The notes under the pieces: generated by a model
The model's input: only the letters and a program-made list of their open reading frames with translations
The model's database searches: none
Told to the model about the DNA's origin: nothing
From: a virus
Taxonomy: Duplodnaviria; Heunggongvirae; Uroviricota; Caudoviricetes
Strand: one strand, 5' to 3'
DNA length: 32,640 nt
IMG/VR virus record: IMGVR_UViG_2541047942_000003
Location: 1 to 32,640 of that record
In this document: positions 15,320-32,058 of the stretch, piece after piece
Layout of the letters: every line of letters begins with the position of its first letter
Position numbering within the stretch: position 1 is the stretch's first letter
Program-made: the position numbers and the translations under genes

Positions 15320-16063
15320 TTAACTGGCTTTCTTTTTCGGGCGTCCACGTTTTGCCGGTGTCACGCTCCGGGTCTTACGCGGGGCGCGGGTGGCCGCTTT
15401 GGGCTGCGGCTCCGGCTTCGGTTTCAGCTCCCGCTCCAGTCGTTCAATCTCTTTTTTGACACCTGCCTGACAGTCGAGCTGTGTCGCACGTTGCAGGTGA
15501 GCCAGCGCACCGGCGGCATCACCACCATCACGCAGAAGCAGACCGGTGATTTTGTGCAGCTTTGCGCGCACTTCATCAGGCATGTCAGCCGTGGCGGTCA
15601 GTTCAAGGGTCTCCGTCAGCAGGCGGGTATCCACAGACTCACCGGCAGCGTGGGCGCGCATGGCCGCGAGCGCCACCTCCTCGGTGAACATGTATGGCGG
15701 GGTGCGGCGGTGTTTACCCGGCATGGTCAGACCGTACTTCAGGGCATAACGGGCAATCTCCAGCGCACCGCCAATATCGCCGGTATCCAGACGCCACAGC
15801 ATGACCGTCATCAGAATGTCATCCTGTGCACCTTTGCCCTGCTCCAGCACGCCGTTCACCCACGGCAACCAGAACGGCAGCAGTTCGCGTTTTTTCGCGG
15901 CCTTCAGCTCTTTTGAATAAATCGCTTTCAGTGTGCGCTGGTCTGCGGCCAGCTTGACCAGCATCTGCTCATAGACAGTTGCATGTCGCAGCGGGGCGGC
16001 TTCCCGCTGCGCGGTCATCGCTGCCGAGACCCGCATCATGTGGCGCTGTGCGGGACTCGTCAT
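15320..16063 (-). CDS. M: Terminase endonuclease (small) subunit gpM
   Basis: 247-aa translation MTSPAQRHMMRVSAAMTAQREAAPL... matches P2 gpM. Confidence 0.9.
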   Translation of the reverse strand: MTSPAQRHMMRVSAAMTAQREAAPLRHATVYEQMLVKLAADQRTLKAIYSKELKAAKKRELLPFWLPWVNGVLEQGKGAQDDILMTVMLWRLDTGDIGGALEIARYALKYGLTMPGKHRRTPPYMFTEEVALAAMRAHAAGESVDTRLLTETLELTATADMPDEVRAKLHKITGLLLRDGGDAAGALAHLQRATQLDCQAGVKKEIERLERELKPKPEPQPKAATRAPRKTRSVTPAKRGRPKKKAS

Positions 16064-16066
16064 CGG

Positions 16067-17140
16067 TTACGCTCCCGGCTCTGCGGTCGCTTTAGCCGGT
16101 GTGGAGAAATCACCGACCTTAATTTTTTCCACCAGACAACCGGCGGCGTAGTCCTCCACCACGTAATCAATGTTCATTGACTCGTAGTTCTCCACGCGAT
16201 CGAGTTTCGGGTTTTCCTCAATCACGCGGCGATGGCTGTCATCCATGTAGTAGATGGACAGGTTTTCCAGCTTCGTGATGAGCATCGCATCAGCCGGGAA
16301 GTACGGGACGCGTACCGCTGGCAGGTTGCCGATGCGTTTCTGGCTGATGATGACGTCAGCGGCCAGCATTTCGCTGTTGTCCTGCTCCTTGTTGACGATG
16401 GGAAAATACTTGTCCGCCAGTAGCTGACGTCCCACAATCACCACAAGGTCAGGGTCTTCCTGATACCACGGCTCAATCAGGTTGTTGGTCGCATCCATCA
16501 CCAGTGCATCAAGGCTGGCATAATCACCGCCCTTACCCACGCGGATGACCTCAGAGGTGGTGTGCCCTTCCTCGTCAGTGACCTTGCTCATCACGCGCGC
16601 CGGAGCTTCATTGCGGTATTTCTGCAGCCAGCCGACCGCCACATCCTGCAGCATCGGGTTACTGCTGCGGTCAGAGGTTTCGGCACGCTTCACGCCGTTA
16701 AAACCGGCCATGATTAAATCAAGGGACTGGCGTTTGATAATGGCGTTACGGACACGGAGCTGGAAATCCTGATAACGCGCCCACAGGTCCAGCGTTTTGT
16801 AGCGGATATAAAAATCGAAGTTAATCTGGTCGCATTCGTACTTGTTTGACGCCAGCTTCGAGAAGTCCTTCGGCTGACGCTCGGTGCCACCGGCGGTGTC
16901 GGTGGTGCTGGCGATGGAGCCGGTGACACCAATACCAATTTTTTCCCCTTTCATTTCGCTGACCGGCACAATGTTGATGCGGGTCAGAAAGTCAGAGGAC
17001 TCCTGCATGGTGTTCATCAGGGTCTGGGTGACCGACGGTTCAACGGTGAATTTTTTCGACACATCACCGGCGTCGATGCCGTTCAATTCGGCAACACGGG
17101 ACAGGTAAGCATTAAATTTAAAGCGGGTTTCCTGGCGCAT
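16067..17140 (-). CDS. N: Major capsid protein gpN
   Basis: 357-aa translation matches P2 gpN. Confidence 0.92.
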   Translation of the reverse strand: MRQETRFKFNAYLSRVAELNGIDAGDVSKKFTVEPSVTQTLMNTMQESSDFLTRINIVPVSEMKGEKIGIGVTGSIASTTDTAGGTERQPKDFSKLASNKYECDQINFDFYIRYKTLDLWARYQDFQLRVRNAIIKRQSLDLIMAGFNGVKRAETSDRSSNPMLQDVAVGWLQKYRNEAPARVMSKVTDEEGHTTSEVIRVGKGGDYASLDALVMDATNNLIEPWYQEDPDLVVIVGRQLLADKYFPIVNKEQDNSEMLAADVIISQKRIGNLPAVRVPYFPADAMLITKLENLSIYYMDDSHRRVIEENPKLDRVENYESMNIDYVVEDYAAGCLVEKIKVGDFSTPAKATAEPGA

Positions 17141-17199: not shown

Positions 17200-18054
17200 T
17201 CAGCAGTTCGTCATCAGGGCGTCACCGCCACCGCCGGTGGCCTTGCTGCGGCGCTGCTGGGTCAGACTTTCGGTGTGGTCGAGGCTGTTTTTCAGGCGGG
17301 TGAATGCCTGGCTGGTTTCATCCGCCCTGTCAGTCACCTCCTGCTTAAGTGCGGAAAAGGCGGTTTCCATCTCAGCGAGGCGCTGCTCAGTGGCGCTCAG
17401 TTTTTCCTGCACATGTTCAGCAACAGCGGTCACCGCTTCATGCACGTCATTCAGACGGGCATCATCGCTGGCCTGTTTGCGGCCAAAAATGGACTTCACC
17501 TTTTCGGTCAGGGCGGTGAACACGGTTTCAGGCAGGTCTTCAAATTCCAGCTCAACGGGCGTTGCCACTGAAATCAGATTTTCAGGGCTTAATTTGAAGC
17601 GGTTCAGGGGATTGTGTTTTGCCGTGCGGCAGAATTCCAGGTATTCCGTGCCAAGGCTTGCCGGGTCATCGGTGACGGCCAGCCCCACCAGATAACATTT
17701 GCCGGTATTGGCAAAGTTCGGCTGAATTTCCATTGAGGTATAGACCTTCTGCGCGGCCTTGTTCATCGCGATAAGGTCATCGGTCGGGGTGATTTTCGCA
17801 AACAGCGCCCATTTGCCTTTCAGCGCCGAATCGTCATCAATCTTTTCAGCCTTCAGTTCGGCCACATCGCCATAACGTTTAAAAATGCCGTCAGGCAGGA
17901 TGCCGCGCAGATGTTCCAGGTTAATGCGGCAACCATAGACTCGCGGGTCAAAGGTTTCGGCCATTTCCTGAATATCCTGCGCACTGATGACACGCCCGTC
18001 ACAGGTGTCACCCTCAACGCCGATACGAAAGAATTTTGAGACTTTTTTTGCCAT
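17200..18054 (-). CDS. O: Capsid scaffolding protein gpO, 284 aa
   Basis: Translation from MAKKVSKFFRIGVEGDTCDGR... matches P2 gpO; start at the ATG at 18052-18054 rather than the track start at 18120. Confidence 0.88.
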   Translation of the reverse strand: MAKKVSKFFRIGVEGDTCDGRVISAQDIQEMAETFDPRVYGCRINLEHLRGILPDGIFKRYGDVAELKAEKIDDDSALKGKWALFAKITPTDDLIAMNKAAQKVYTSMEIQPNFANTGKCYLVGLAVTDDPASLGTEYLEFCRTAKHNPLNRFKLSPENLISVATPVELEFEDLPETVFTALTEKVKSIFGRKQASDDARLNDVHEAVTAVAEHVQEKLSATEQRLAEMETAFSALKQEVTDRADETSQAFTRLKNSLDHTESLTQQRRSKATGGGGDALMTNC

Positions 18055-18227
18055 TGTCAGGAGTCCTGAATAGTGATTAGAGGAGTCACATGTCGGCATC
18101 AGTTTCCCGACGATGCGCATCCTCCGCCATCAGTCCCGGATGGCTTATCACTGACACAACAGCACCTTAGCGAATCGCGGGGCGCGACTCAGTAGCCTTG
18201 CCGTGTATTCATCACGGCGAGGTATTC
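18055..18227. promoter_or_regulatory. Divergent late promoter region between O and P; contains a 6-bp inverted repeat (GCCGTG...CACGGC) in the P leader
   Basis: Intergenic position between divergently transcribed O and P, as in P2. I could not locate a canonical Ogr TGT-N12-ACA dyad by eye. Confidence 0.35.
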
Positions 18228-20000
18228 ATGACCATCACCACAGACACCACTCTTTTACACGACCCGCGTCGTCAGGCGGCGCTGCTGTACTGGCAGGGGT
18301 TTTCCGTGCCGCAGATTGCCGCCATGTTGCAGATGAAACGCCCGACGGTGCAGAGCTGGAAACAGCGCGACGGCTGGGACAGCGTTGCCCCCATCAGCCG
18401 TGTCGAAATGAGTCTGGAAGCGCGACTGACCCAGCTCATCATCAAACCGCAGAAAACCGGCGGTGACTTCAAGGAAATTGACCTGCTGGGACGCCAGATT
18501 GAACGACTGGCACGGGTCAACCGCTACAATCAGACCGGCAACGAGGCAGACCTTAATCCGAACATCGCTAACCGCAACAAAGGCGGGCGGCGCAAACCGA
18601 AAAAGAATTTTTTCAGCGACGAGGCTATCGAAAAGCTGGAGCAGATTTTCTTTGAGCAGTCTTTCGACTATCAGTTGCACTGGTATCGCGCCGGGCTTGA
18701 GCACCGCATCCGCGATATCCTGAAATCCCGCCAGATTGGCGCGACGTTTTATTTTTCCCGCGAGGCGCTGCTGCGCGCCCTGAAAACCGGCCATAACCAG
18801 ATTTTTCTGTCGGCCAGTAAAACGCAGGCGTATGTGTTCCGCGAATACATCATCGCCTTTGCCCGGCTGGTTGACGTTGACCTGACCGGTGACCCGATTG
18901 TCCTGGGCAATAACGGCGCAAAACTGATTTTTCTCGGCACCAACTCCAACACCGCACAGAGCCATAACGGCGACCTGTACGTCGACGAGATTTTCTGGAT
19001 CCCGAATTTTCAGGTACTGCGTAAGGTGGCATCAGGTATGGCCTCACAGAGTCACCTGCGCTCGACCTATTTCTCCACCCCGTCCACGCTGGCGCACGAC
19101 GCCTACCCGTTCTGGTCGGGTGAACTGTTCAACCGGGGACGCGCCAGCGCCGCCGAACGCGTGGAAATCGACGTCAGTCATAACGCCCTTGCCGGTGGGC
19201 TTCTCTGTGCGGACGGCCAGTGGCGGCAGATTGTCACCATTGAGGACGCCCTGAAAGGTGGCTGCACGCTGTTCGACATTGAGCAGCTCAAACGCGAAAA
19301 CAGCGCCGACGATTTTAAAAACCTGTTCATGTGTGAATTTGTTGACGACAAGGCGTCGGTGTTCCCGTTCGAGGAGCTGCAACGCTGCATGGTCGACACG
19401 CTGGAAGAATGGGAAGACTATGCGCCGTTTGCCGCGAATCCGTTCGGCTCCCGCCCGGTATGGATTGGTTACGACCCGTCACACCGTGGCGACAGTGCCG
19501 GATGCGTGGTGCTGGCACCGCCGGTGGTGGCCGGTGGCAAATTCAGAATACTTGAGCGTCACCAGTGGAAAGGCATGGACTTTGCCACTCAGGCGGAATC
19601 CATCCGCAAACTCACCGAAAAATACAACGTCGAATACATCGGTATTGATGCCACCGGCCTCGGTGTCGGCGTGTTCCAGCTCGTGCGCTCGTTCTATCCC
19701 GCCGCGCGCGATATCCGCTACACACCGGAAATGAAAACCGCAATGGTGCTCAAGGCAAAAGACGTTATCCGCCGTGGCTGTCTGGAATATGACGTCAGCG
19801 CCACCGACATCACCAGCTCGTTTATGGCTATCCGCAAGACCATGACCAGCAGCGGACGCAGCGCCACCTATGAGGCCAGCCGCAGCGAGGAAGCCAGCCA
19901 CGCCGACCTCGCCTGGGCGACCATGCACGCCCTGTTAAATGAGCCACTCACCGCCGGTATCAGCACCCCGCTGACATCCACCATTCTGGAGTTTTACTGA
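18228..20000 (+). CDS. P: Terminase ATPase (large) subunit gpP, 590 aa
   Basis: Translation from MTITTDTTLLHDPRRQAALLYWQGFSVPQIAAM... matches P2 gpP; start at the ATG at 18228. Confidence 0.9.
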   Translation: MTITTDTTLLHDPRRQAALLYWQGFSVPQIAAMLQMKRPTVQSWKQRDGWDSVAPISRVEMSLEARLTQLIIKPQKTGGDFKEIDLLGRQIERLARVNRYNQTGNEADLNPNIANRNKGGRRKPKKNFFSDEAIEKLEQIFFEQSFDYQLHWYRAGLEHRIRDILKSRQIGATFYFSREALLRALKTGHNQIFLSASKTQAYVFREYIIAFARLVDVDLTGDPIVLGNNGAKLIFLGTNSNTAQSHNGDLYVDEIFWIPNFQVLRKVASGMASQSHLRSTYFSTPSTLAHDAYPFWSGELFNRGRASAAERVEIDVSHNALAGGLLCADGQWRQIVTIEDALKGGCTLFDIEQLKRENSADDFKNLFMCEFVDDKASVFPFEELQRCMVDTLEEWEDYAPFAANPFGSRPVWIGYDPSHRGDSAGCVVLAPPVVAGGKFRILERHQWKGMDFATQAESIRKLTEKYNVEYIGIDATGLGVGVFQLVRSFYPAARDIRYTPEMKTAMVLKAKDVIRRGCLEYDVSATDITSSFMAIRKTMTSSGRSATYEASRSEEASHADLAWATMHALLNEPLTAGISTPLTSTILEFY

Positions 20001-21019
20001 TGAGCAAGAAAAAAGGGAAAACACCGCAACCTGCGGCAAAAAAAATGACCGCCAGCGCCCCGAAAATGGAGGCATTCACCTTTGGTGAGCCGGTGCCGGT
20101 ACTCGACCGCCGTGACATTCTGGATTACGTCGAGTGCATCAGTAACGGCAGATGGTATGAGCCGCCGGTCAGCTTTACCGGTCTGGCGAAAAGCCTGCGT
20201 GCTGCCGTGCATCACAGCTCGCCGATTTACGTCAAACGCAATATTCTGGCCTCGACATTTATCCCGCATCCGTGGCTTTCCCAGCAGGATTTCAGCCGCT
20301 TTGTGCTGGATTTTCTGGTGTTCGGTAATGCGTTTCTGGAAAAGCGTTACAGCACCACCGGTAAGGTCATCAGACTGGAAACCTCACCGGCAAAATATAC
20401 CCGCCGTGGCGTGGAGGAGGATGTTTACTGGTGGGTGCCGTCCTTCAACGAGCCGACAGCCTTCACGCCCGGCTCCGTGTTTCACCTGCTGGAGCCTGAT
20501 ATTAATCAGGAGCTGTACGGCCTGCCGGAATATCTCAGCGCCCTTAACTCTGCATGGCTGAATGAGTCGGCCACGCTGTTCCGCCGCAAGTATTACGAAA
20601 ACGGCGCACATGCCGGATACATCATGTACGTCACCGATGCCGTGCAGGATCGCAACGATATCGAAATGCTTCGCGAAAACATGGTGAAGTCGAAAGGCCG
20701 CAACAACTTTAAAAATCTATTTCTCTATGCCCCACAGGGGAAAGCCGACGGCATTAAAATTATCCCGCTCAGTGAAGTGGCAACGAAGGACGATTTTTTT
20801 AATATCAAAAAAGTCAGCGCCGCAGATCTGCTGGACGCACACCGCATCCCCTTTCAGTTGATGGGCGGCAAGCCGGAGAACGTCGGGTCACTGGGGGATA
20901 TTGAGAAAGTGGCAAAAGTATTTGTCCGTAATGAACTCATTCCATTACAGGAGAGAATAAAGTCAATAAATGAATGGTTAGATATGGAAGTCATAAAATT
21001 CCATGATTATAACTTATAA
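20000..21019 (+). CDS. Q: Portal protein gpQ; the last 25 or so codons are encoded by AT-rich DNA
   Basis: 339-aa translation matches P2 gpQ; DNA composition changes sharply near 20940. Confidence 0.9.
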   Translation: MSKKKGKTPQPAAKKMTASAPKMEAFTFGEPVPVLDRRDILDYVECISNGRWYEPPVSFTGLAKSLRAAVHHSSPIYVKRNILASTFIPHPWLSQQDFSRFVLDFLVFGNAFLEKRYSTTGKVIRLETSPAKYTRRGVEEDVYWWVPSFNEPTAFTPGSVFHLLEPDINQELYGLPEYLSALNSAWLNESATLFRRKYYENGAHAGYIMYVTDAVQDRNDIEMLRENMVKSKGRNNFKNLFLYAPQGKADGIKIIPLSEVATKDDFFNIKKVSAADLLDAHRIPFQLMGGKPENVGSLGDIEKVAKVFVRNELIPLQERIKSINEWLDMEVIKFHDYNL

Positions 21020-21031
21020 GTAAATATATAA

Positions 21032-21057
21032 AGTGGGCGGAATGCAATCCCGCCTAC
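21032..21057. terminator. Stem-loop between the convergent Q and two-TM genes (putative bidirectional terminator)
   Basis: AGTGGGCGG ... CCGCCTACT, a roughly 9-bp stem with one G-U pair and a loop containing AATGCAA. Confidence 0.4.
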
Positions 21058-21061
21058 TTAA

Positions 21062-21769
21062 CTATATATACTTCCTTTTTATTCTACTTAATTCTATCAC
21101 CGATGAGGAATGACAAAATGACAAATTAATAGTATCGATATAATCCAAAATTTGACTCTCAACCTCGATAAAAATATTCTTGGGTCCATTACTAATCGAT
21201 ATACCGATTTCATCCAAAACAGCCATCATTTTTCTCTGATGAGTTTTATATTTATAGTCTTTATTTTCCTCTGTAATATGTGCATTAGCTTCCTCAATAA
21301 CACATTTGATTCTAGATATTATTTCTAGATAATCTCTCGAAACAGATATATCACCGCCCTGTGCTTCAGGAAACATAACCCTATACCATCTAAAAAAATT
21401 AACTTTCTCTGGATAGATGCTACTTCTTTTAGTTAACTCAGCACTTGCAAATTCTCTAAACATCGTCAGATGACTAGTATAATTACTATTGTTATTATTT
21501 TTAACTCCAGCGTTATATGTCATCAAAGCAATCATAACACCAAAAACGGTAACAAAAGTTGTTATAAGCCATCCAAATGCCTGAAAATACATCACTATAC
21601 CAGATGTTTTTTCCGCAAAAAATTTCAAGCACTGGCTATCAAAGCATATATCTCGTTCATATAGCCTTTCATTCTGAATAGTTTCCAAAAGAGAAATTAG
21701 CGAAAAAATCAAAAAAAGAACTGACGACACACCGACAATACATTTAAGAAGTCTAATATTTGCATTCAT
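21062..21769 (-). CDS. Two-TM membrane protein, 235 aa; candidate effector of the reverse transcriptase module
   Basis: Two predicted N-terminal hydrophobic helices (LLKCIVGVSSVLFLIFSLISLL and IVMYFQAFGWLITTFVTVFGVMIALM) and a soluble C-terminal domain; the start ATG overlaps the RT stop (ATGA); AT-rich. Confidence 0.6.
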   Translation of the reverse strand: MNANIRLLKCIVGVSSVLFLIFSLISLLETIQNERLYERDICFDSQCLKFFAEKTSGIVMYFQAFGWLITTFVTVFGVMIALMTYNAGVKNNNNSNYTSHLTMFREFASAELTKRSSIYPEKVNFFRWYRVMFPEAQGGDISVSRDYLEIISRIKCVIEEANAHITEENKDYKYKTHQRKMMAVLDEIGISISNGPKNIFIEVESQILDYIDTINLSFCHSSSVIELSRIKRKYI

Positions 21770-22956
21770 AATGGTTTTAAAGATGCCAATCTAGATTTAA
21801 AACACTCCAGTTTTTCTTTAAATGATTCAGATCGAGTAAGGATAATCATCTTATATCTCGTCAAATCATACTTTCTTTTATACCAATGTTTATTTTGATT
21901 ACCTTTCGAATACGACAACTCTAAACTTTTTATAGCTGCATCAATCACAGCAACATCTCTTTTAGATGGCATCGGTTTTATTGCCTGTAACTGTTTCTTG
22001 AATGATTCATATTTTTCATGCCCAACACGACCAAGCTTATTAACTCTCCCCATACATCTATTGAATTCTTTTCTGTATGCAACACTTGTTTTTGTATTAT
22101 TTTTTGCCGCCAGCAATTTCAAATTATGTATAGATGCCCTGATTCTTTTGACTTCATCAGATGGTAGTCGAGGTGAGTCATAGTCAACTCTTAAACCATG
22201 TACTTTTATAGGTTCAGATGAACAGTGAAATATTTTAGTTTTGTGCTTATTTATCGGCAAGTCATGCTCAGAAAGCATCCTCTCTATATGGCTTTGCATT
22301 TGAGAAAAATCATAATTACTTATTTTAGATGACACAGTAATATCATCTACCAAACGCGTATAAATAAGTCCTTTTCTCTGCGCACGCCTTACCACATCCC
22401 CTTCAACAGCGAATAAACACAAAGTTGCTATATAGCTTGATGTTAAGGCCCCCTGTACGACAAAATCATTCTTAGTACATATATCCACCAAGTATTCAAG
22501 AGCCTCATCCTTAATATGCAATATATCCTCAAACACGCTCCTAACCAGATCTCTATGAATATTATCGAAAAAATTACTTATATCCACCTTGAGAACTGTT
22601 TTTGCTCCACAATGAGCCTTTGCGCATGAAACATAGTCACGTTTGACGTTAGAATTTAAAACATCATTTTTACTAGGGACTGAACCAAACAAAAATGAAG
22701 GAAAAACCACCAATTCCTTAAAGATACGTTTATTAATTCTACTCTGTAATAATCTCATTTTAGGATGCAGGGAGTAGACAATCCGTTTGCTTCCGTCAAT
22801 TTTGGGAATTTCTTTTAGAGTATATTTCTCATCTAATGGTAGTTCTGCAATAGCTTTAAGCTCTTCAACAGAAATCGATAAAGCCTTTGACAGCTTTTCA
22901 AGTGTTGTGATAGGAGCATTGGATTTGCTGTATGGTTTAAATTTATCCATAAACAT
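21766..22956 (-). CDS. Retron-type reverse transcriptase, about 396 aa
   Basis: Motif order typical of retron RTs: LSKALSISVEEL, VLKVDISNFFDNI, QGALTSSYIATL, GLIYTRLVDDITVS (YADD position reads LVDD), KTKIF...VHG. The track start at 23040 is a TTG and is probably false; I place the start at the ATG ending at 22956 (MFMDKF), which is uncertain by a few tens of nt. Confidence 0.75.
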   Translation of the reverse strand: MFMDKFKPYSKSNAPITTLEKLSKALSISVEELKAIAELPLDEKYTLKEIPKIDGSKRIVYSLHPKMRLLQSRINKRIFKELVVFPSFLFGSVPSKNDVLNSNVKRDYVSCAKAHCGAKTVLKVDISNFFDNIHRDLVRSVFEDILHIKDEALEYLVDICTKNDFVVQGALTSSYIATLCLFAVEGDVVRRAQRKGLIYTRLVDDITVSSKISNYDFSQMQSHIERMLSEHDLPINKHKTKIFHCSSEPIKVHGLRVDYDSPRLPSDEVKRIRASIHNLKLLAAKNNTKTSVAYRKEFNRCMGRVNKLGRVGHEKYESFKKQLQAIKPMPSKRDVAVIDAAIKSLELSYSKGNQNKHWYKRKYDLTRYKMIILTRSESFKEKLECFKSRLASLKPL

Positions 22957-22973
22957 ACCATTCAAATTCAAAG

Positions 22974-23280
22974 TTACGTACGGTCTTCCCATACTCAAGG
23001 GTGGAACAGCAGAGATGCTTACATCAACAATTGTCAGCAACAGCCTCTGCTATCTTTCGACCGTACGTAATGTCGTCGGCTACAGCACCATCGTAGTTGA
23101 CGACGGTGGGGCCTCGCTGATAGGTCCATAGTGGACGCTTTTTTGTAAAAGCAAAAACTGACAATTTAGTATTGTTGACTGCCGCATACCAAGCGAATCG
23201 CTGGTGCGCTAAGAATAATGCAACAAAAAAATAAGAATTTCAATCGAGTAACTGCAAGCCAGCGACATCGTTTGGCGCGC
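22974..23280 (-). ncRNA. Structured noncoding region between cos and the RT start; candidate retron msr-msd or other RT-associated ncRNA; boundaries unresolved
   Basis: Perfect 12-bp inverted repeat TTACGTACGGTC / GACCGTACGTAA (23059-23070 and 22974-22985) enclosing a nested AGCAGAG / CTCTGCT repeat; a further hairpin at 23072-23104 and a palindrome GCTTTTTTGTAAAAGC at 23137-23152. Confidence 0.3.
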
Positions 23281-23281
23281 A

Positions 23282-23300
23282 GTGCTTTCCCCGCCTCGCC
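23282..23300 (-). other. cos: P2-type cos (19-nt cohesive-end sequence GGCGAGGCGGGGAAAGCAC on the minus strand)
   Basis: Reverse complement of 23282-23300 reads GGCGAGGCGGGGAAAGCAC followed by TGCGCGC, matching my recollection of the left end of the P2 genome. Confidence 0.65.
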
Positions 23301-23395
23301 CGCCCGCTTCATGGGGCGGTTTTGATGCAACCTCGTATTAAAGGGGACACCATAGCCCATCAAACCTCAGACTTCGCCCCTAGCTAACGTTTATG

Positions 23396-23422
23396 AATGC
23401 AATGTAATGCAACTTAATGCAA
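23396..23422 (+). promoter_or_regulatory. Three AATGCAA heptamers spaced exactly 10 bp apart, upstream of the helicase-nuclease gene; putative protein-binding sites
   Basis: AATGCAA at 23396, 23406 and 23416; followed by an AT-rich -10-like GATAAT (23434-23439) and an AAGAGG ribosome-binding site 7 nt before the ATG at 23484. Confidence 0.4.
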
Positions 23423-23483
23423 GTTATGGTAATGATAATTCTGCGTTAACAATTAAACTAATGTACCTGTAAGAGGATAAAAA

Positions 23484-25967
23484 ATGTCTGGTTTTTTCCT
23501 TGATTTAACCAAGCTTTCGCCCAGTGTAAATAGCGACACAGCGATTCCACCGCGAGATATATTTACAGCTCTACCGAGCAAAGACACCAAATTTCAATAC
23601 CCTCGAGATGTGCAATCAGAGGTCTGGGAAAAATGGTATGAAGCAAGGAGAAGCCCAACCAATGTAATAAAAATGAATACCGGAAGCGGTAAAACTTCAG
23701 TTGGGTTAATCATTCTTAAAAGCTGTATAAATGAAGGAGAAGGTCCCGCTGTATATGTTGTTCCTGACAACTATCTAGTTGAGCAAGTGGTTTTGGAGGC
23801 TAATCAACTTGGTATACCTGTAACTCAAGATGAGAGGTCCCCCAAATTTATTGCAGGTAAAGAAATTTTAGTTACAAATATATTCAAAGTGGTTAATGGA
23901 CGTTCTGCATTTGGCGTTGGAGATGATGGACAAAAAATACCAATAGGTTCTATAATAATTGACGATGCTCACGCTTGCCTTTCTTCAATTGAAGAACAAT
24001 TCTCCATTAGCATTCAAAAAAATAACCCTGCCTATGATAAATTATTCAGAATTTTTGAAAATTCACTAATGACACAAGCTGGTGCAAAAACACTAGAGAT
24101 AAAATCCGGCGATAGAAATGCTTATGTGAGAGTTCCATTTTGGAAATGGCAAGAAAGCATAAATGATATAATGACAATCTTGTTAGAAAATAAAGACCAT
24201 GATGACTTGAGTTTCAAATGGCCATTAATAAAAGACAATCTAATATTATCGAAATGCGTTGTAAGTGCTTCCAAAATAGAGATATCACCTCATTGCATAC
24301 CAATCCAAATGATCCCAAGCCTATCAAACGCAAGAAGAAAAATATTCATGACAGCTACTCTTGTCGATGAATCCATTCTAGCGAGCCACTTCGGAATAAC
24401 GGATGAATCACTCTCTAATCCGATAACACCAAAAACAATTGGTGATATTGGTGATAGAATGATACTAATGCCTCAGGTTATAAACCCTAGTCTTTCTGAT
24501 GTAGATATCAAAGCTATGTGCAAGGAGATATCCTCCAAACATAATGTTGTTGTAATTGTACCATCCGATTACAGAACTAGATTTTGGCAAGATGTTGCAG
24601 ACAGAATATTAGATAAAAATACAATTTATCAAGGTGTACAAGAATTAAGGACACAACATGTTGGCTTAGTAGTCCTAGTTAATAGATATGATGGTATTGA
24701 TTTACCAAATACCGCATGTCGTCTATTAGTAATAGATGGACTTCCTGACGTTCGTAGACTAATAGATAAAGTCTCACAAAGCTTATTGCTTGGAAGCGAA
24801 AAAACCAAAGATGAAATTATCCAGAAAATTGAACAAGGAATGGGGCGAGGAGTGAGATCAAGCGACGACTTCTGCGGAGTGATCTTACTTGGCAAAGCAT
24901 TAAATGGCGCTGTTTTCCTTGGCTCCTCCTTAGAAAGGTTTTCTCCAGCAACGAAAGCACAAATTCAACTTTCACAGCAATTGGTATCGATACTGCCGGA
25001 TACAACTATTGATTCAATCAAAGGTGCTCTTGATTATTGTCTGTTACGCAATTCTGACTGGGTCTCAAAAAGCAAAGGTATATTGACTGGCTTAACATTG
25101 GAAAATAAGCAGATTGACCAGCATACTATAAACAAAAGATTGGCATATGACTTAGCATCACGAAATATGTTTCAACAAGCCGCTTTAACTCTAAAAAATG
25201 ATAGTAGTACAGCTGACAAAGTTTATAAGGGTTATCTAAAAGAACATGCTGCGGAATATGTAAACTTATATGACAAATCTGAAGCTCAGATATTGCTTCA
25301 GTCTGCATCAAACGATAACTATCGGGTATTAAAACCACTAATCGGCGTAACATATAATAGACTTAATGGTGCGGCACTTGAACAGGCCAGGGAATGTAGC
25401 TCCTATCTCAGAAGTAATTTTGAATCGGCGAATCAAGTCGTTGTGCATACTAATTCAATAATAGAAAACCTTATTTTCTCCGAGGGCACATCGAATCCCT
25501 TCGAAGATGCTATCGAAAAAGTTGCATATTTGGTCGGTTTTCGTAGCCAACGGCCAGAAAATGATACAGGTAAAGGACCTGACAATTTATGGGCAATGGG
25601 AGAAAACAATTATCTAGTAATTGAATGCAAAAATGGAGCAACCGCAGAAAGAATAAGTAAGCATGACTGCAATCAGTTAAATGGGTCGGGTGCATGGTTC
25701 AGAAACATGTATGATCAAACTGCTACCGCCACACCTATAATGATACATCACTCTAACATGCCTGAATATGCCGCAACACTAAACGAAGGGTCTCGAATAA
25801 TGACCATAAATGATCTTGAACGTTTTAAAGCATCTATCCTCAGTTTTATCACGGCCATTTGTACAAGTGATAAACGACACGATGAGATATTTATAAGAGA
25901 ACAATTGATCACATGTAAATTACGTGCATCAGACATAGTTGAGACCTATACGCGAAACCCTCGTTAA
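23484..25967 (+). CDS. Helicase-nuclease fusion, 827 aa: Rad3/DinG-like SF2 helicase with a C-terminal PD-(D/E)xK-like motif; candidate single-gene defence protein
   Basis: Walker A NTGSGKT (aa 65-71), motif II IIIDDAHA (aa 157-164), motif III FMTATL, motif VI QGMGRGVRSSDDFCGVILLG, and C-terminal E...GPD(aa 700)...VIECK(aa 714-716); strong RBS; AT-rich; occupies the P2 old/tin position. Confidence 0.7.
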   Translation: MSGFFLDLTKLSPSVNSDTAIPPRDIFTALPSKDTKFQYPRDVQSEVWEKWYEARRSPTNVIKMNTGSGKTSVGLIILKSCINEGEGPAVYVVPDNYLVEQVVLEANQLGIPVTQDERSPKFIAGKEILVTNIFKVVNGRSAFGVGDDGQKIPIGSIIIDDAHACLSSIEEQFSISIQKNNPAYDKLFRIFENSLMTQAGAKTLEIKSGDRNAYVRVPFWKWQESINDIMTILLENKDHDDLSFKWPLIKDNLILSKCVVSASKIEISPHCIPIQMIPSLSNARRKIFMTATLVDESILASHFGITDESLSNPITPKTIGDIGDRMILMPQVINPSLSDVDIKAMCKEISSKHNVVVIVPSDYRTRFWQDVADRILDKNTIYQGVQELRTQHVGLVVLVNRYDGIDLPNTACRLLVIDGLPDVRRLIDKVSQSLLLGSEKTKDEIIQKIEQGMGRGVRSSDDFCGVILLGKALNGAVFLGSSLERFSPATKAQIQLSQQLVSILPDTTIDSIKGALDYCLLRNSDWVSKSKGILTGLTLENKQIDQHTINKRLAYDLASRNMFQQAALTLKNDSSTADKVYKGYLKEHAAEYVNLYDKSEAQILLQSASNDNYRVLKPLIGVTYNRLNGAALEQARECSSYLRSNFESANQVVVHTNSIIENLIFSEGTSNPFEDAIEKVAYLVGFRSQRPENDTGKGPDNLWAMGENNYLVIECKNGATAERISKHDCNQLNGSGAWFRNMYDQTATATPIMIHHSNMPEYAATLNEGSRIMTINDLERFKASILSFITAICTSDKRHDEIFIREQLITCKLRASDIVETYTRNPR

Positions 25968-26206: not shown

Positions 26207-28486
26207 TTACTCTGAATAACCAGAAAACCCACTCCACTCATCTACACTAGGATATGAAAATTGCTTTTCATTGTAATTGACGATCGCACCGCGTACTAAC
26301 GCCTCAAGCTCCCATCGCTGCGGCCTGATACCGTTTTGAGCAAGGTCAACGCGGATACGGGTGATTTGCATTCGTTCCGACCTGGTCAGTCTGGCCGATG
26401 GTGCAATTTCATGTGGTTTTAACGGGCTTCCGTTTCTTTGCTGACGACTTGGCGTTCTCCGACCGTGTTTTAATGCACCCCTGAGCGCCCTCACGACCTC
26501 CGGGTCATTCCATTCGATAACACCGTCATCAACCAGATTTAGCACTGCTGCGGCGTGCTCAGAAGGTGTGGGAGCCGGTAACGAAGTATCACCACCGGTG
26601 AGCTTTCCACAGTTATTGACAGGACTCCGAGGCGCGGCGATGCCGCTTTTTAAAGTCAAAGGCTCAAAGACCGGCACTTTCGGAACAATGCGCCAGTCCG
26701 TCGTTCTGGTGATATGAATATGACGCGCGCCGAGATGCGGCGCGTAAATGCCGACCACTCTCTCGACTTCTTCCTCATACTCGTTAACGTCATCCGACGG
26801 GCTACGGGCGACCCTGACAGTCTGACAATCGCGCGGGACATTTGCCCCACCCTGCGCGCTGATATACAACGCAAAATCACCACTGTCTGCGGCGGCGCGT
26901 GCAGCCTCGACGCGCTCGTCAAACTCATCAGCAATGCTGACGCCGCGAGGCAATTTGCGTAGTTCACGGTAAGCCCCCATTGTCGGCAGACCAACCGTTT
27001 TAAATTGCGGGATGCGCCACGTTGACGCCCATGCGGTAACAGCCGCGGCAGTGTCTTTCAGCGGTCTGCCGGTATCATTATCGAGCTGACCATCCAGTGC
27101 ATATCCGTCGATATTTTTTGAGATGTATTTCGCGATATACCCCGCAGCACCGCCCCGGTTAAGGTGTTTCGCCTGAAAACGGTTTCGCGCGGCTCCTCTT
27201 TCGTCGCCATCCTCTTTGAGCGCGTAGCGACGCATGATTTCAATAATCTGGTTACGCTGGCGTGGATTACAAAAAAGCATCATATGCCAGTGCGGCGTTC
27301 CGTCGTGGTGTGGCTCGACGACTCGCAAACCGTAGGCCTGTAAATCATTATCCTTGAATGCCGTGCGCATCAGGCTCCAGATGCGGCAGAGATAACGCTG
27401 AGCATCCTTTGGATTAAATGCCTCATCATTCCAGCCGTGATTTAGCTGGACGGTTTTACTTTCGCCTTTTCCGACCTGACGTGTCGGGTGATACTTTGAC
27501 GGCGCGGTCAGCGTGATAAACATCCCCACATCACCCTCTGCGGCGGCGTAACGCTCAATACCGGCAATGGTGTTCATCAGCTCCATCCGGCGAATTTCAG
27601 GATTAGAAATACTGCCCATCACCTTACTGATAAGGTCGATGCGTTCGCCGGTTTCCCTGTTTTCAAGGTCACACGATTTAAGAAATTCCAGATTTGCCTG
27701 GCGGCGCGCACGCACATCACGAATGGCATGTTTACTGGCATAAGGAGAACGGTCTTTATTGACCTCCCCGACAGCAATCAGTAACGCCTCATGCCAGCGC
27801 ATACGCTGGCCTTTAAGCTGATGAGTCCACCACTCATCGTTAAACAGGCGGGCAATAGCAGAATATGCCTGCCTCGTGGTCATCTGTCCTTTACGGTATT
27901 TTTTCCAGTAGAGAGGGGAAATATTGAAAGCACGTGCAGCGCCAGCAACATGACCATAGAGGTGAGCCTGCGCCTCATCCGTAAACAGCGATTCTTTCTC
28001 GCCATGCGCATCCACCCAGGCATCGCAGAGTTCCTCATACATCATGAAAAGCTGTGATGAGATACGGGCGGCAAACTTTTTCAGCTCCTTGTCATTCATT
28101 CCCGGCAGGCGCGCATAGTGGTCACGCTCTGCCAGAAACAGCAACGACGCGTCGGTGTTCATTTCATGGCGCTGATTCACACGCTCAATGCGCGGCCATA
28201 AACGACGCTGAAAAGTGGATGTGAGGAAATAAAACCCGTGCACCGGGCTTTTATTGCGCCGGATGTAGTCATAGCGTGAAGTAAACAGCGAGCGCAAAAA
28301 GTAAGGCAGGCGGTTAATCGTGGATAAAACACCTTGCACCTGACGCATCTCGTCACGTGTAAGGGGTCTTTCGCGCCCGACAGCCTCGCGTGGCGCGTTC
28401 CATGCATAAGCACCGGTAAACGCCTTACCGGTGCCTGCAGCAAATGCTGACGGAGGGACAAAACGCCCGGAGGCTTTAACGGCCAT
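26207..28486 (-). CDS. A: Replication initiation protein gpA (rolling-circle nickase), 759 aa
   Basis: Translation from MAVKASGRFVPPSAFAAGTGKAF... matches P2 gpA; start placed at the ATG ending at 28486 rather than the track start at 28528. Confidence 0.9.
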   Translation of the reverse strand: MAVKASGRFVPPSAFAAGTGKAFTGAYAWNAPREAVGRERPLTRDEMRQVQGVLSTINRLPYFLRSLFTSRYDYIRRNKSPVHGFYFLTSTFQRRLWPRIERVNQRHEMNTDASLLFLAERDHYARLPGMNDKELKKFAARISSQLFMMYEELCDAWVDAHGEKESLFTDEAQAHLYGHVAGAARAFNISPLYWKKYRKGQMTTRQAYSAIARLFNDEWWTHQLKGQRMRWHEALLIAVGEVNKDRSPYASKHAIRDVRARRQANLEFLKSCDLENRETGERIDLISKVMGSISNPEIRRMELMNTIAGIERYAAAEGDVGMFITLTAPSKYHPTRQVGKGESKTVQLNHGWNDEAFNPKDAQRYLCRIWSLMRTAFKDNDLQAYGLRVVEPHHDGTPHWHMMLFCNPRQRNQIIEIMRRYALKEDGDERGAARNRFQAKHLNRGGAAGYIAKYISKNIDGYALDGQLDNDTGRPLKDTAAAVTAWASTWRIPQFKTVGLPTMGAYRELRKLPRGVSIADEFDERVEAARAAADSGDFALYISAQGGANVPRDCQTVRVARSPSDDVNEYEEEVERVVGIYAPHLGARHIHITRTTDWRIVPKVPVFEPLTLKSGIAAPRSPVNNCGKLTGGDTSLPAPTPSEHAAAVLNLVDDGVIEWNDPEVVRALRGALKHGRRTPSRQQRNGSPLKPHEIAPSARLTRSERMQITRIRVDLAQNGIRPQRWELEALVRGAIVNYNEKQFSYPSVDEWSGFSGYSE

Positions 28487-28751
28487 ATGAGCCAAAAGCC
28501 TCTGAACAACGCTTGCTGAGTTGCTCAACCTGCGCGTTTAAATCAGCAAAAGACTTTGCGCTTCCGGTCAGAATATCGTGATGCATCAGGCCGGAAACGA
28601 GCTGGCTTAATTTCGGGTAATAACCAACCACCGCCAGCCATTCCTGACCGGCGTTTTTACCGCTTTCCGCTCTCTTTTTCTCGTGGAGAATAAACTGGAA
28701 GCTGTCACTGGTAACGACATAACGTTCGCCAATTTCAATACGAATACTCAT
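28476..28751 (-). CDS. Small early-operon protein, 91 aa, at the P2 orf83 position
   Basis: Lies upstream of A in the cox-B-A operon; assigned by synteny only. Confidence 0.6.
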   Translation of the reverse strand: MSIRIEIGERYVVTSDSFQFILHEKKRAESGKNAGQEWLAVVGYYPKLSQLVSGLMHHDILTGSAKSFADLNAQVEQLSKRCSEAFGSYGR

Positions 28752-30068: not shown

Positions 30069-30253
30069 ACCCTCCGGCTTTTCAGAAAGGTCAGAGCCTT
30101 TTTTAACGGACTCTGTTTTTTGGTGCGGATAATGATTCCCTTACGCCCCTTACCGTGGGTGATGTTGAAGTCAATCGCCCTGGGGCTTTCGTTACGCAGT
30201 AACTGAGCAATACAACGAGGCTCATTCATACGGTTCTCCTTAACGTGGTTCAC
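30059..30253 (-). CDS. Small hypothetical protein at the P2 orf78 position
   Basis: Synteny between cox and B; start uncertain. Confidence 0.5.
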   Translation of the reverse strand: MNHVKENRMNEPRCIAQLLRNESPRAIDFNITHGKGRKGIIIRTKKQSPLKKALTFLKSRRVWK

Positions 30254-30515
30254 CGAGACCTAACCACATCAACCAGCCGTCACGAATCTCTTTAGGGCGG
30301 CTTTCATAAGCCAGTTTTAGTCCGTTATTCCATGCCGGAAGGTATACCCAATATTCACCTGCACGACCTGAAGCTGATTGTGGATCGGTCATATCAATTA
30401 CAGGCAGCTTTCCTTTATCGATCATCCGACGAACCGCTCCTGTCGATTTTCCTATTAGTTTTGCGAACTCCTGATAAGGAATCGCATCAGTCATGAGTGT
30501 TACTTGCTTGCTCAT
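30240..30515 (-). CDS. cox: Cox excisionase and early-promoter repressor
   Basis: 91-aa translation MSKQVTLMTDAIPYQEFAKLIGKSTGAVRRMIDKGKLPV... matches P2 Cox. Confidence 0.92.
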   Translation of the reverse strand: MSKQVTLMTDAIPYQEFAKLIGKSTGAVRRMIDKGKLPVIDMTDPQSASGRAGEYWVYLPAWNNGLKLAYESRPKEIRDGWLMWLGLGEPR

Positions 30516-30629
30516 GTCGTCCTCCAGCCCTCATGAATTGCGTTTAATGCCTTATAATGCCTTTTAGTGCCCACATCCAAGCACTAAACAATCTACATCT
30601 AAACTAAATACTATTGAGATCTAAACACC
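30516..30629. promoter_or_regulatory. Immunity switch region between cox and C: consensus TATAAT (30553-30558) flanked by direct repeats TAATGCCTT (30546-30554 and 30556-30564)
   Basis: Motifs read directly; interpreted by analogy with the P2 Pe/Pc face-to-face promoters and C operator direct repeats. Confidence 0.45.
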
Positions 30630-30929
30630 ATGTCAAACACGATAAGCGAGAAGATAGTCTTAATGCGAAAATCAGAGTATTTGAGCAGACAACAACTTGC
30701 TGATTTAACAGGGGTTCCGTATGGCACGCTGAGTTACTATGAAAGTGGTCGTTCAACACCTCCAACAGATGTCATGATGAACATCCTGCAGACCCCACAA
30801 TTCACCAAATACACTTTATGGTTCATGACCAATCAGATCGCTCCTGAGTCCGGGCAAATTGCGCCCGCTCTCGCACACTTTGGGCAAAACGAAACAACGT
30901 CGCCCCACTCCGGTCAAAAGACTGGTTAA
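30630..30929 (+). CDS. C: Immunity repressor C
   Basis: 99-aa translation with a helix-turn-helix (LSRQQLADLTGVPYGTLSYYESGR); matches P2 C. Confidence 0.9.
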   Translation: MSNTISEKIVLMRKSEYLSRQQLADLTGVPYGTLSYYESGRSTPPTDVMMNILQTPQFTKYTLWFMTNQIAPESGQIAPALAHFGQNETTSPHSGQKTG

Positions 30930-31044: not shown

Positions 31045-32058
31045 ATGGCAATCAAAAAACTCGATGATGGTCGATATGAAGTGGACATCCGCCCTACTGG
31101 ACGTAATGGAAAACGCATCCGTAGGAAGTTTGATAAGAAAAGCGAAGCTGTCGCTTTCGAGAAATACACGTTGTACAACCACCACAATAAAGAATGGCTA
31201 TCAAAACCAACAGACAAGCGACGTCTGTCGGAGCTGACACAGATCTGGTGGGATTTAAAGGGTAAACACGAAGAGCATGGGAAATCTAATCTTGGAAAAA
31301 TTGAAATCTTCACAAAAATAACGAATGACCCATGCGCATTTCAAATTACGAAATCGCTTATCAGCCAGTACTGCGCCACCCGAAGAAGTCAGGGTATTAA
31401 ACCTTCGAGTATCAATCGTGATTTAACATGTATTAGCGGCATGTTTACAGCCCTGATTGAAGCGGAGTTATTCTTTGGTGAGCACCCTATCAGAGGGACA
31501 AAAAGGCTTAAGGAGGAAAAACCAGACACAGGCTATCTCACGCAGGAAGAAATTGCCTTACTGCTTGCTGCTCTTGACGGCGACAATAAAAAGATTGCGA
31601 TTCTTTGCCTGAGTACTGGAGCACGTTGGGGAGAAGCAGCTCGTTTGAAAGCAGAAAATATCATCCATAACCGCGTCACGTTTGTTAAAACGAAAACAAA
31701 CAAACCACGCACCGTCCCGATCTCAGAGGCTGTTGCCAAAATGATCGCGGATAACAAACGAGGTTTTTTATTCCCTGATGCTGATTACCCTCGCTTCAGA
31801 CGAACAATGAAAGCAATAAAACCGGATTTGCCAATGGGGCAAGCCACACATGCACTAAGGCACAGCTTTGCCACTCATTTCATGATTAATGGAGGAAGTA
31901 TTATCACGCTACAACGGATACTAGGTCACACGCGGATTGAGCAAACTATGGTTTACGCTCACTTTGCGCCAGAGTACCTTCAGGACGCCATTTCTCTTAA
32001 TCCGCTAAGAGGTGGTACTGAGGCCGAGAGTGTCCACACAGTGTCCACAGTAGAGTAA
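31045..32058 (+). CDS. int: Tyrosine integrase
   Basis: 337-aa translation matches P2 Int, with HALRHSFATH and a C-terminal catalytic Tyr region (MVYAHF); adjacent to attL. Confidence 0.92.
   Translation: MAIKKLDDGRYEVDIRPTGRNGKRIRRKFDKKSEAVAFEKYTLYNHHNKEWLSKPTDKRRLSELTQIWWDLKGKHEEHGKSNLGKIEIFTKITNDPCAFQITKSLISQYCATRRSQGIKPSSINRDLTCISGMFTALIEAELFFGEHPIRGTKRLKEEKPDTGYLTQEEIALLLAALDGDNKKIAILCLSTGARWGEAARLKAENIIHNRVTFVKTKTNKPRTVPISEAVAKMIADNKRGFLFPDADYPRFRRTMKAIKPDLPMGQATHALRHSFATHFMINGGSIITLQRILGHTRIEQTMVYAHFAPEYLQDAISLNPLRGGTEAESVHTVSTVE

Follow-up and report, generated by a model that had tools for sequence, protein, structure and literature searches.

Phased ATGCA repeats at a fixed distance from the cohesive end of P2-like and P4-like elements, a probable distal part of cos

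Three AATGCAA repeats that look like promoter elements of a helicase gene in a P2-like prophage were found to keep a fixed position relative to the cos cohesive end, and they are conserved family-wide whatever cargo genes lie beside them. By analogy with cosB of phage lambda, the repeats are probably the distal recognition module of the P2/P4 cos for terminase; we infer that terminase would be the binding protein and that the block would be needed for packaging. A promoter-looking repeat is hence reassigned here from the cargo to the phage backbone.

The window (the whole stretch of 32,640 nucleotides analyzed) is a P2-like prophage, and its features are collected in Table 1. Its cos is placed between the portal gene Q and the replication gene gpA, and the two cargo systems, a type IV retron and the candidate defence system PDC-S28, flank cos, one on each side. 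The region between gpA and Q, adjoining cos, has been described as a defence-gene hotspot (PMC9122126). The retron (21062-23250, minus strand) sits between Q and cos, and its msr/msd RNA is expected in about 23040-23250. A promoter-like TTGAAA-17-CATTAT was seen on the retron side, on the minus strand at 23243-23215, and an Rfam scan of 20900-23600 gave chance-level matches only. The same type IV retron also occurs in phage pro147 and is missing from E. coli strain 219. A hairpin, GGCGG-AATGCAATC-CCGCC (21036-21056), lies between Q and the 2TM gene; its T-rich tail is on the minus strand, and it looks like a terminator of the retron operon rather than one of Q.

Table 1. Features of the window that bear on the repeats, with positions in the window
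Feature	Position	Strand	Evidence or remark
gpM, small terminase subunit	15320-16063	-	Pfam PF05944 Phage_term_smal, E = 9e-48
Capsid protein N	16067-17140	-	
Scaffold protein O	17200-18120	-	
gpP, large terminase subunit	18198-20000	+	Pfam Terminase_5 (residues 22-79), HTH_23, Terminase_6N, Terminase_6C
Portal Q	20000-21019	+	
Type IV retron 2TM protein, 235 aa	21062-21769	-	PADLOC 2TM_IV
Type IV retron reverse transcriptase, 424 aa	21766-23040	-	PADLOC RT_IV
cos core, 55 bp	23275-23329	+	common to P2, P4 and other P2-like phages
19-nt cohesive-end sequence of cos, GTGCTTTCCCCGCCTCGCC	23282-23300	-	reads GGCGAGGCGGGGAAAGCAC on the minus strand, towards the retron and gene Q
Proximal ATGCAA copy	23325-23330	+	offset +37, right edge of the cos core
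Spacer, cos core to distal repeats	23331-23395	.	family-variable sequence, conserved length
Three AATGCAA repeats	23396-23422	+	ATGCAA at offsets +109, +119 and +129; distal repeat block of the cos region
SF2 helicase, PADLOC candidate defence system PDC-S28	23484-25967	+	PADLOC E = 0; Pfam ResIII, DEAD, Helicase_C_2
Replication protein gpA	26207-28528	-	
Cox homolog	30240-30515	-	
C repressor	30630-30929	+	
Integrase	31045-32058	+	

The repeat array was confirmed by the sequence, by Tandem Repeats Finder and by shuffling. As shown by the sequence (TGAATGCAATGTAATGCAACTTAATGCAAGTTATGG; 23390-23429 reads TTTATGAATGCAATGTAATGCAACTTAATGCAAGTTATGG), the three heptamers start at 23396, 23406 and 23416 on the plus strand, and their spacing of exactly 10 bp falls a little short of the 10.5 bp of a B-DNA turn. 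Tandem Repeats Finder reported a period-10 array of 2.7 copies at 23396-23422, and the phased triple was present in none of 100 dinucleotide-preserving shuffles of the window. Furthermore, ATGCA-N5-ATGCA has a single site in the window, at the repeat block, where 0.2 matches would be expected by chance. The array starts 95 bp past the cohesive-end sequence and ends 61 bp before the ATG of the helicase (23484), so that the placement between cos and the helicase start given in the initial annotation was correct. The same annotation had pointed to a further AATGCAA in the hairpin after Q. That copy exists, at 21041-21047, where it forms the loop of the hairpin and belongs to the retron cargo, but its tie to the repeats was not upheld: the single heptamer is no more frequent in the window than chance predicts (9 copies, 8.5 expected), and therefore the copies at 21041-21047 and 23217 carry no weight, were rejected as linked to the repeats and are regarded as coincidence.

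Next, the cos site was delimited. When the window was compared by blastn with a phage collection, only 23275-23329 aligned, with an identity of 87-98%, to P2 and to some 70 further P2-like phages, and the homology stopped at 23329/23330. The exact 19-mer GGCGAGGCGGGGAAAGCAC constitutes the first 19 bases of the P4 record and is identical to the P2/P4 cohesive end as quoted in the literature (PMC3931495). A 19-nt cohesive end inside a core of about 55 bp fits a P2/P4-type cos, and the 55-bp core has been described as the conserved or required cos region of the P2 family (PMC5694545, PMC3931495, PMC9594776); one group found that cosmid transduction improved with longer cos flanks (PMC9594776). 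From the proximal ATGCAA copy at the edge of this core to the first distal copy, the distance is 72 bp, start to start.

The conservation of the flank was analyzed family-wide. IMG/VR was scanned with the cos core pattern TCCCCGCCNCGCCNGCCCGCTT alone, a pattern that is blind to the content of the flank, and the sample comprised 100 distinct right flanks (73 clusters at <80% identity); the P2-like and P4-like elements from which they came differ widely in cargo. Offsets were counted from TCCCCGCC, and the zero point for information content is 23288 in the window. At least one ATGCA was present between +100 and +140 in 99 of the 100 flanks, at least two in 78 and at least three in 45. With the pattern ATGC[AG], at least two copies were found in 98 flanks and at least three in 80, about 20% of the flanks having only two. 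Nine control stretches of the same size contained at least one copy in 2-12 of the 100 flanks and at least two in 0-1, and control stretches on the Q side of cos showed no ATGCA enrichment.

The copies are also fixed in position. ATGCA was found at +37 in 98 of the 100 flanks, and its copies peak at +37, +109, +119 and +128/+132. The first distal copy stands at +109 in 62 of 79 lineages (clusters) and the second follows 10 bp after the first in 68 of 77 clusters, while the third is variable (9, 10 or 13 bp past the second). The offsets are +37, +109, +119 and +129 in the window, +37, +109, +119 and +128 in P2, and +37, +109, +119 and +132 in P4; the window thus has the distal ATGCA block layout as defined here, with copies at +109, +119 and +128 to +132 in addition to the one at +37. 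Similarly, the information content shows a strong core from -13 to +48, low values from +49 to +104, which is a spacer whose length is nonetheless conserved, a second conserved block (cATGCaaA..cATGCA) from +108 to +123, and values near zero past +141. The block is also found beside cohesive ends of the 186 type (CCACGCC). The initial annotation had offered control of cargo expression or a part in cos recognition as roles for the repeats. Recognition of cos is favored by the fixed offset, the presence in 99 of 100 flanks with any cargo, and the occurrence in P2 and P4, whereas control of the cargo was not borne out as the reason for their conservation.

Some variation was observed among the flanks. 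A weakly conserved inverted repeat, GCCAGnnCTGGC, is located at +66 to +77 in most P2/P4-type cos spacers (for example L130-L244), and it is missing in the lineage of the window (23354-23365 in the window, and the prophages L002 and L003). This lineage is also without the TGCAT half of the proximal ATGCAnnTGCAT palindrome. In one contig (L011, IMGVR_UViG_2698536401_000016, 2924-2959), there are four AATGCAA units, not three, by way of an extra CTTAATGCAA unit.

More distant relatives were then compared. In Ralstonia phage phiRSA1, the proximal motif is ATGCAggTGCAT, and ATGCA copies follow 71 bp further on, the first two being 10 bp apart. Pseudomonas phage phiCTX (L245) and three IMG/VR contigs (L251, L255 and L264) have CTGCR at +37/+45 and +108/+118; in these phiCTX-like phages the layout is kept, and the proximal and distal motifs change together. 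This motif-change argument rests on phiCTX and one cluster of three contigs. In HP1 (L247) and K139 (L248), repeats of the form ATT(T)CCGTGG lie close to that same end, the right end. ATGCA is the motif of P2, P4 and phiRSA1, and CTGCR that of the phiCTX-like phages at all positions, in a comparison of motifs alone across few independent lineages. The motif differences may constitute a lineage-specific packaging code across the Peduoviridae.

Matches to a triple ATGCAA-N4 pattern elsewhere in IMG/VR were mostly unrelated arrays (tandem repeats of giant viruses and 3′ ends of ORFs in gut phages) that are not linked to cos, and they were rejected. Long ATGCAAnnnn arrays, located at ORF 3′ ends, were seen in the phage contigs L013, L025, L031, L047, L075, L082, L109, L114, L116, L120, L123 and L126, with (ATAATG)n-like repeats after them and no linkage to a P2-type cos. 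In these unrelated phage contigs, the arrays may be origin iterons.

We then considered what might read the block if it is a packaging element. One reading is that a host architectural protein (IHF, HU or Fis) or the shape of the DNA itself, curved by its phased A-rich units, bends cos for cleavage. Several features agree with it, namely the fixed length and free sequence of the spacer, the 10-bp phasing, the A-rich bases that follow copy 1 in the consensus of the family and the IHF sites annotated near cos in the phiCTX record. However, what is conserved is the specific pentamer ATGCA, which contains G and C, rather than an A-tract, and by hand reading the spacer of the window contains no convincing IHF consensus. 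Moreover, the change to CTGCR at all positions in the phiCTX-like phages suggests a phage-specific reader. We therefore regard a host protein or DNA shape as an unlikely reader of the block.

The relation of the repeats to the helicase was analyzed by gathering helicase orthologs at graded identity through protein homology, together with the contigs that encode them. Among complete E. coli genomes, 70 contained the region at 99% identity or more and are so uninformative on conservation. Two further P2-like prophages, L002 (90% helicase identity) and L003 (82%), retain three invariant hexamers in phase, even as the bases between copies 1 and 2 (TGTA, TCTA and TATG) and those after copy 2 (CTTA, CCTA and CAAA) differ among the window, L002 and L003. 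Judged from these alignments, the invariant hexamers with changing spacers are a phylogenetic footprint. They support the suggestion in the initial annotation that the repeats are putative iterated binding sites for a regulator or architectural protein, and the conservation in related islands on which that suggestion had been made to depend was found.

At 80-81% identity, the helicase orthologs of L004 and of L005-L007 are preceded by unrelated DNA in which no repeats were found. L004 is a conjugative element in which the helicase lies next to TraU and TraC, and L005-L007 represent an integrase island of Pectobacterium, indicating that the gene moves between kinds of mobile element. A scan of genome contigs with the helicase protein returned no relative, and tblastn of the helicase against isolated phages gave one match only, at 30% identity. 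In E. coli strain 219, the order is Q-cos-repeats-ISEc12-helicase, with no retron; thus, the repeats stay with cos whatever the content of the Q side, and an insertion sequence can part them from the helicase. The partial match of strain 219 had been a candidate natural variant of the region and was rejected as such, being an ISEc12 insertion. In NZ_CP020514.1 (L001, 421-2990), this IS21-family element lies between the repeats and the ribosome-binding site of the helicase, at the equivalent of window position 23469. ISEc12 in strain 219 probably uncouples the helicase from its native upstream region.

These results bear on a second alternative, in which the repeats would be an operator or activator array of the PDC-S28 helicase promoter, overlapping the -35 element and controlling the cargo in the lysogen. 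In its favor, 61 bp separate the last repeat from the ATG, gene and repeats are retained together in L002 and L003, and a promoter for the helicase must lie somewhere within 23396-23483. Furthermore, TTATGRTAWTGAT, which follows the third copy, is conserved in the lineage and by hand reading contains -10-like hexamers, although the -10 candidates read by hand upstream of the helicase are weak, and their conservation is partial. A position in the block or just downstream of it is probable for the helicase promoter. In contrast, a sigma-70 scan of 22900-23700 called no plus-strand promoter, the orthologs in the conjugative element and the Pectobacterium island lack the repeats, and P2 and P4 both carry the block without the PDC-S28 helicase. 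The same block also stands at the same cos offset beside unrelated and mostly converging cargo: of 65 evaluable lineages, 46 have a first large ORF on the right that runs on the opposite strand towards the block, and 19 have one that points away. Because the neighboring ORF points at the block in those 46 lineages, the block is not in general a promoter element. As for a gene-specific operator, the repeats neither travel with the helicase nor are restricted to positions upstream of a co-oriented gene. The converging neighbors and the repeat-free orthologs thus speak against the helicase promoter, to which the initial annotation had assigned the repeats, as the reason for their existence, and we consider an operator array improbable. 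The PDC-S28 helicase is a neighbor of the repeats and no part of the repeat element.

Folding was analyzed in view of a third alternative, in which the block would act as a terminator or insulator and keep cargo or late transcription from passing through cos. Copies 2 and 3 read CCATGCA...TGCATGG, with a T run behind them, in P4 and in many of the P4-like flanks, and the stretch from +100 to +150 folds significantly better than shuffled sequences in 20 of 79 lineages. However, the other 59 lineages have no significant hairpin and the motif is kept in all, while the direct-repeat orientation and the fixed offset are maintained whichever way the neighboring gene points. In the window, 23385-23445 has no stable fold (-3.1 kcal/mol, z = +0.74), and a Rho-independent terminator there was rejected on this ground. 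The conserved property is the motif, not a structure, and a terminator is very unlikely as the general role of the block. Another role of the block is possible in P4-like elements, where copies 2 and 3 also pair into a hairpin that a T run follows.

Another array of similar phasing was observed in the Pe-Pc control region of the prophage, where 30543-30572 contains direct repeats with a 10-bp phase (AATGCCTTAT AATGCCTTTT AGTGCC). This array looks like the Cox-box array of the prophage. P2 Cox binds direct repeats one helical turn apart, and a Cox homolog is encoded in the window; the cos-distal repeats might accordingly be read as binding sites of this recombination directionality factor and regulator, the more so as the Pe-Pc array shares AATGC with them. 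The likeness is limited to AATGC, and family-wide the cos block has cATGCA as its consensus; where TGCCTT(A/T)T(A/T)A is read in the Pe-Pc array, the cos block has ATGCAA, which does not match a Cox box. Moreover, the block is also found at 186-type cohesive ends, in P4 and in phiRSA1, and the 186-type phages, P4 and phiRSA1 encode different directionality factors. We know of no function of Cox at cos, and Cox binding is a highly improbable explanation of the block. Finally, a recent, functionless slippage duplication of a 10-bp unit, which the tandem unit and the four-copy variant might suggest, is hardly credible given position-specific conservation across 73 sequence clusters and three phage genera, and given inter-hexamer bases that diverge while the hexamers do not.

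Recognition of cos by terminase is thus the explanation that we prefer. The block has the properties of a recognition element for the packaging enzyme, because it keeps a fixed distance from the cut and is independent of the cargo and of its orientation, and also because helper and satellite, which otherwise share only cos, have the block in common and, in another genus, the motif has switched jointly at every position. As in a cosB-like element, the repeats adjoin the nicking site and are common to P2, P4 and 99 of 100 sampled flanks. In the proposed mechanism, cos would be bipartite: the 19-nt cohesive end lies in a 55-bp core with an ATGCA at its right edge (+37), followed by a spacer of about 60 bp, fixed in length and free in sequence, and then by two or three ATGCA copies at +109, +119 and about +129 to +132. 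Terminase would bind the phased copies on one face of the helix. The candidate readers, suggested by analogy, are gpM and/or the N-terminal helix-turn-helix domain that Pfam recognizes in gpP, and both proteins are encoded in the window. Binding would anchor and orient terminase beside the nicking site, after which cos would be cut and that end fed into the prohead; by the lambda parallel, the first end to enter would be the one bearing the block, on the gene A / old side. The 72 bp between the proximal and the first distal copy correspond to about seven helical turns, and with the 10-bp phasing, all copies would lie roughly on one face; a terminase oligomer could then contact both modules, the spacer possibly being bent. 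P4-like satellites would retain the block because they depend on the terminase of the helper.

A broader proposal can be put forward tentatively. It may be that the P2/P4 packaging signal is bipartite and that its undescribed distal module, two or three phased ATGCA copies 72 bp from the proximal one, is a determinant of terminase specificity that satellites mimic, that switches as a set across the Peduoviridae (CTGCR in phiCTX-like phages, other motifs in HP1 and K139) and that fixes the inner edge of the hotspot; we hold this wider view to be possible rather than probable. In the literature searched, which did not include a cos mapping study of 1990, neither a distal ATGCA block nor a gpM binding site was found described, and the bipartite layout of cos may be under-described across the family. 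That study, by Ziermann and Calendar (Gene 96:9), is said to have mapped the functional extent of the P2/P4 cos by deletion.

The assignment has consequences for the hotspot and for the use of cos. With the block counted as part of cos, the inner limit of the defence hotspot falls at the block; the boundary of the P2 cos module, and hence the inner edge of the hotspot, would be at about 23425 (+137) and not at 23329, where the 55-bp core ends, and the helicase cargo begins right past the block. For cargo swaps at the hotspot, or for minimal P2/P4 cosmids in DNA delivery, about 150 bp (-13 to +137) should accordingly be kept. The block is a concrete candidate for what the terminases of the P2 family read and what P4 satellites have copied, and CTGCR is a natural variant motif by which specificity could be probed. 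If the signal is indeed bipartite, both the packaging specificity between helper and satellite and the design of P2/P4 cosmids become testable by a few point mutations.

Compared with known systems, the closest reference is the 55-bp core of P2-like phages itself. The stretch 23275-23329 of the window is the same locus, with the proximal ATGCA as its right edge, whereas the three repeats of the window lie 67-93 bp beyond the core as it is usually quoted. In the phiCTX record (NC_003278), a 'region3; containing R4, R5, R6 repeats' and IHF sites are annotated around cos. CTGCR at +37/+46 and +108/+118 gives phiCTX the same layout as the window; on the other hand, R4-R6 could not be mapped onto the CTGCR copies, and attP is also close to cos in phiCTX, so that some of the annotated repeats may serve integration. 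Arrays of directionality factors, such as the P2 Cox boxes and the 186 Apl sites, resemble the block in being direct repeats at one-turn spacing, as described in the literature (PMC7498355). In contrast to them, the block differs in sequence and location and is common to elements that have different directionality factors.

Terminase-recognition repeat arrays within cos sites are already known as a kind, and the repeats of the window are not surprising in principle. In lambda, cosB is composed of R3-I1-R2-R1; its R sites lie to one side of cosN, and gpNu1, the small subunit of terminase, binds them. The sequences are unrelated to those of the window, and the conserved core is 5-7 bp here as opposed to 16 bp in the R elements of lambda. 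Furthermore, the distal copies of the present block are direct repeats at intervals of exactly 10 bp, the spacer of the window has no recognizable IHF site, and binding by gpM or gpP is putative. P2, unlike lambda, is reported to package from monomeric circles and not from concatemers. The likeness lies in the organization: in both, a short element recurs several times within the packaging signal, to one side of the nicking site and with a spacer in between, and the copies are conserved among the genomes that are packaged by the same terminase.
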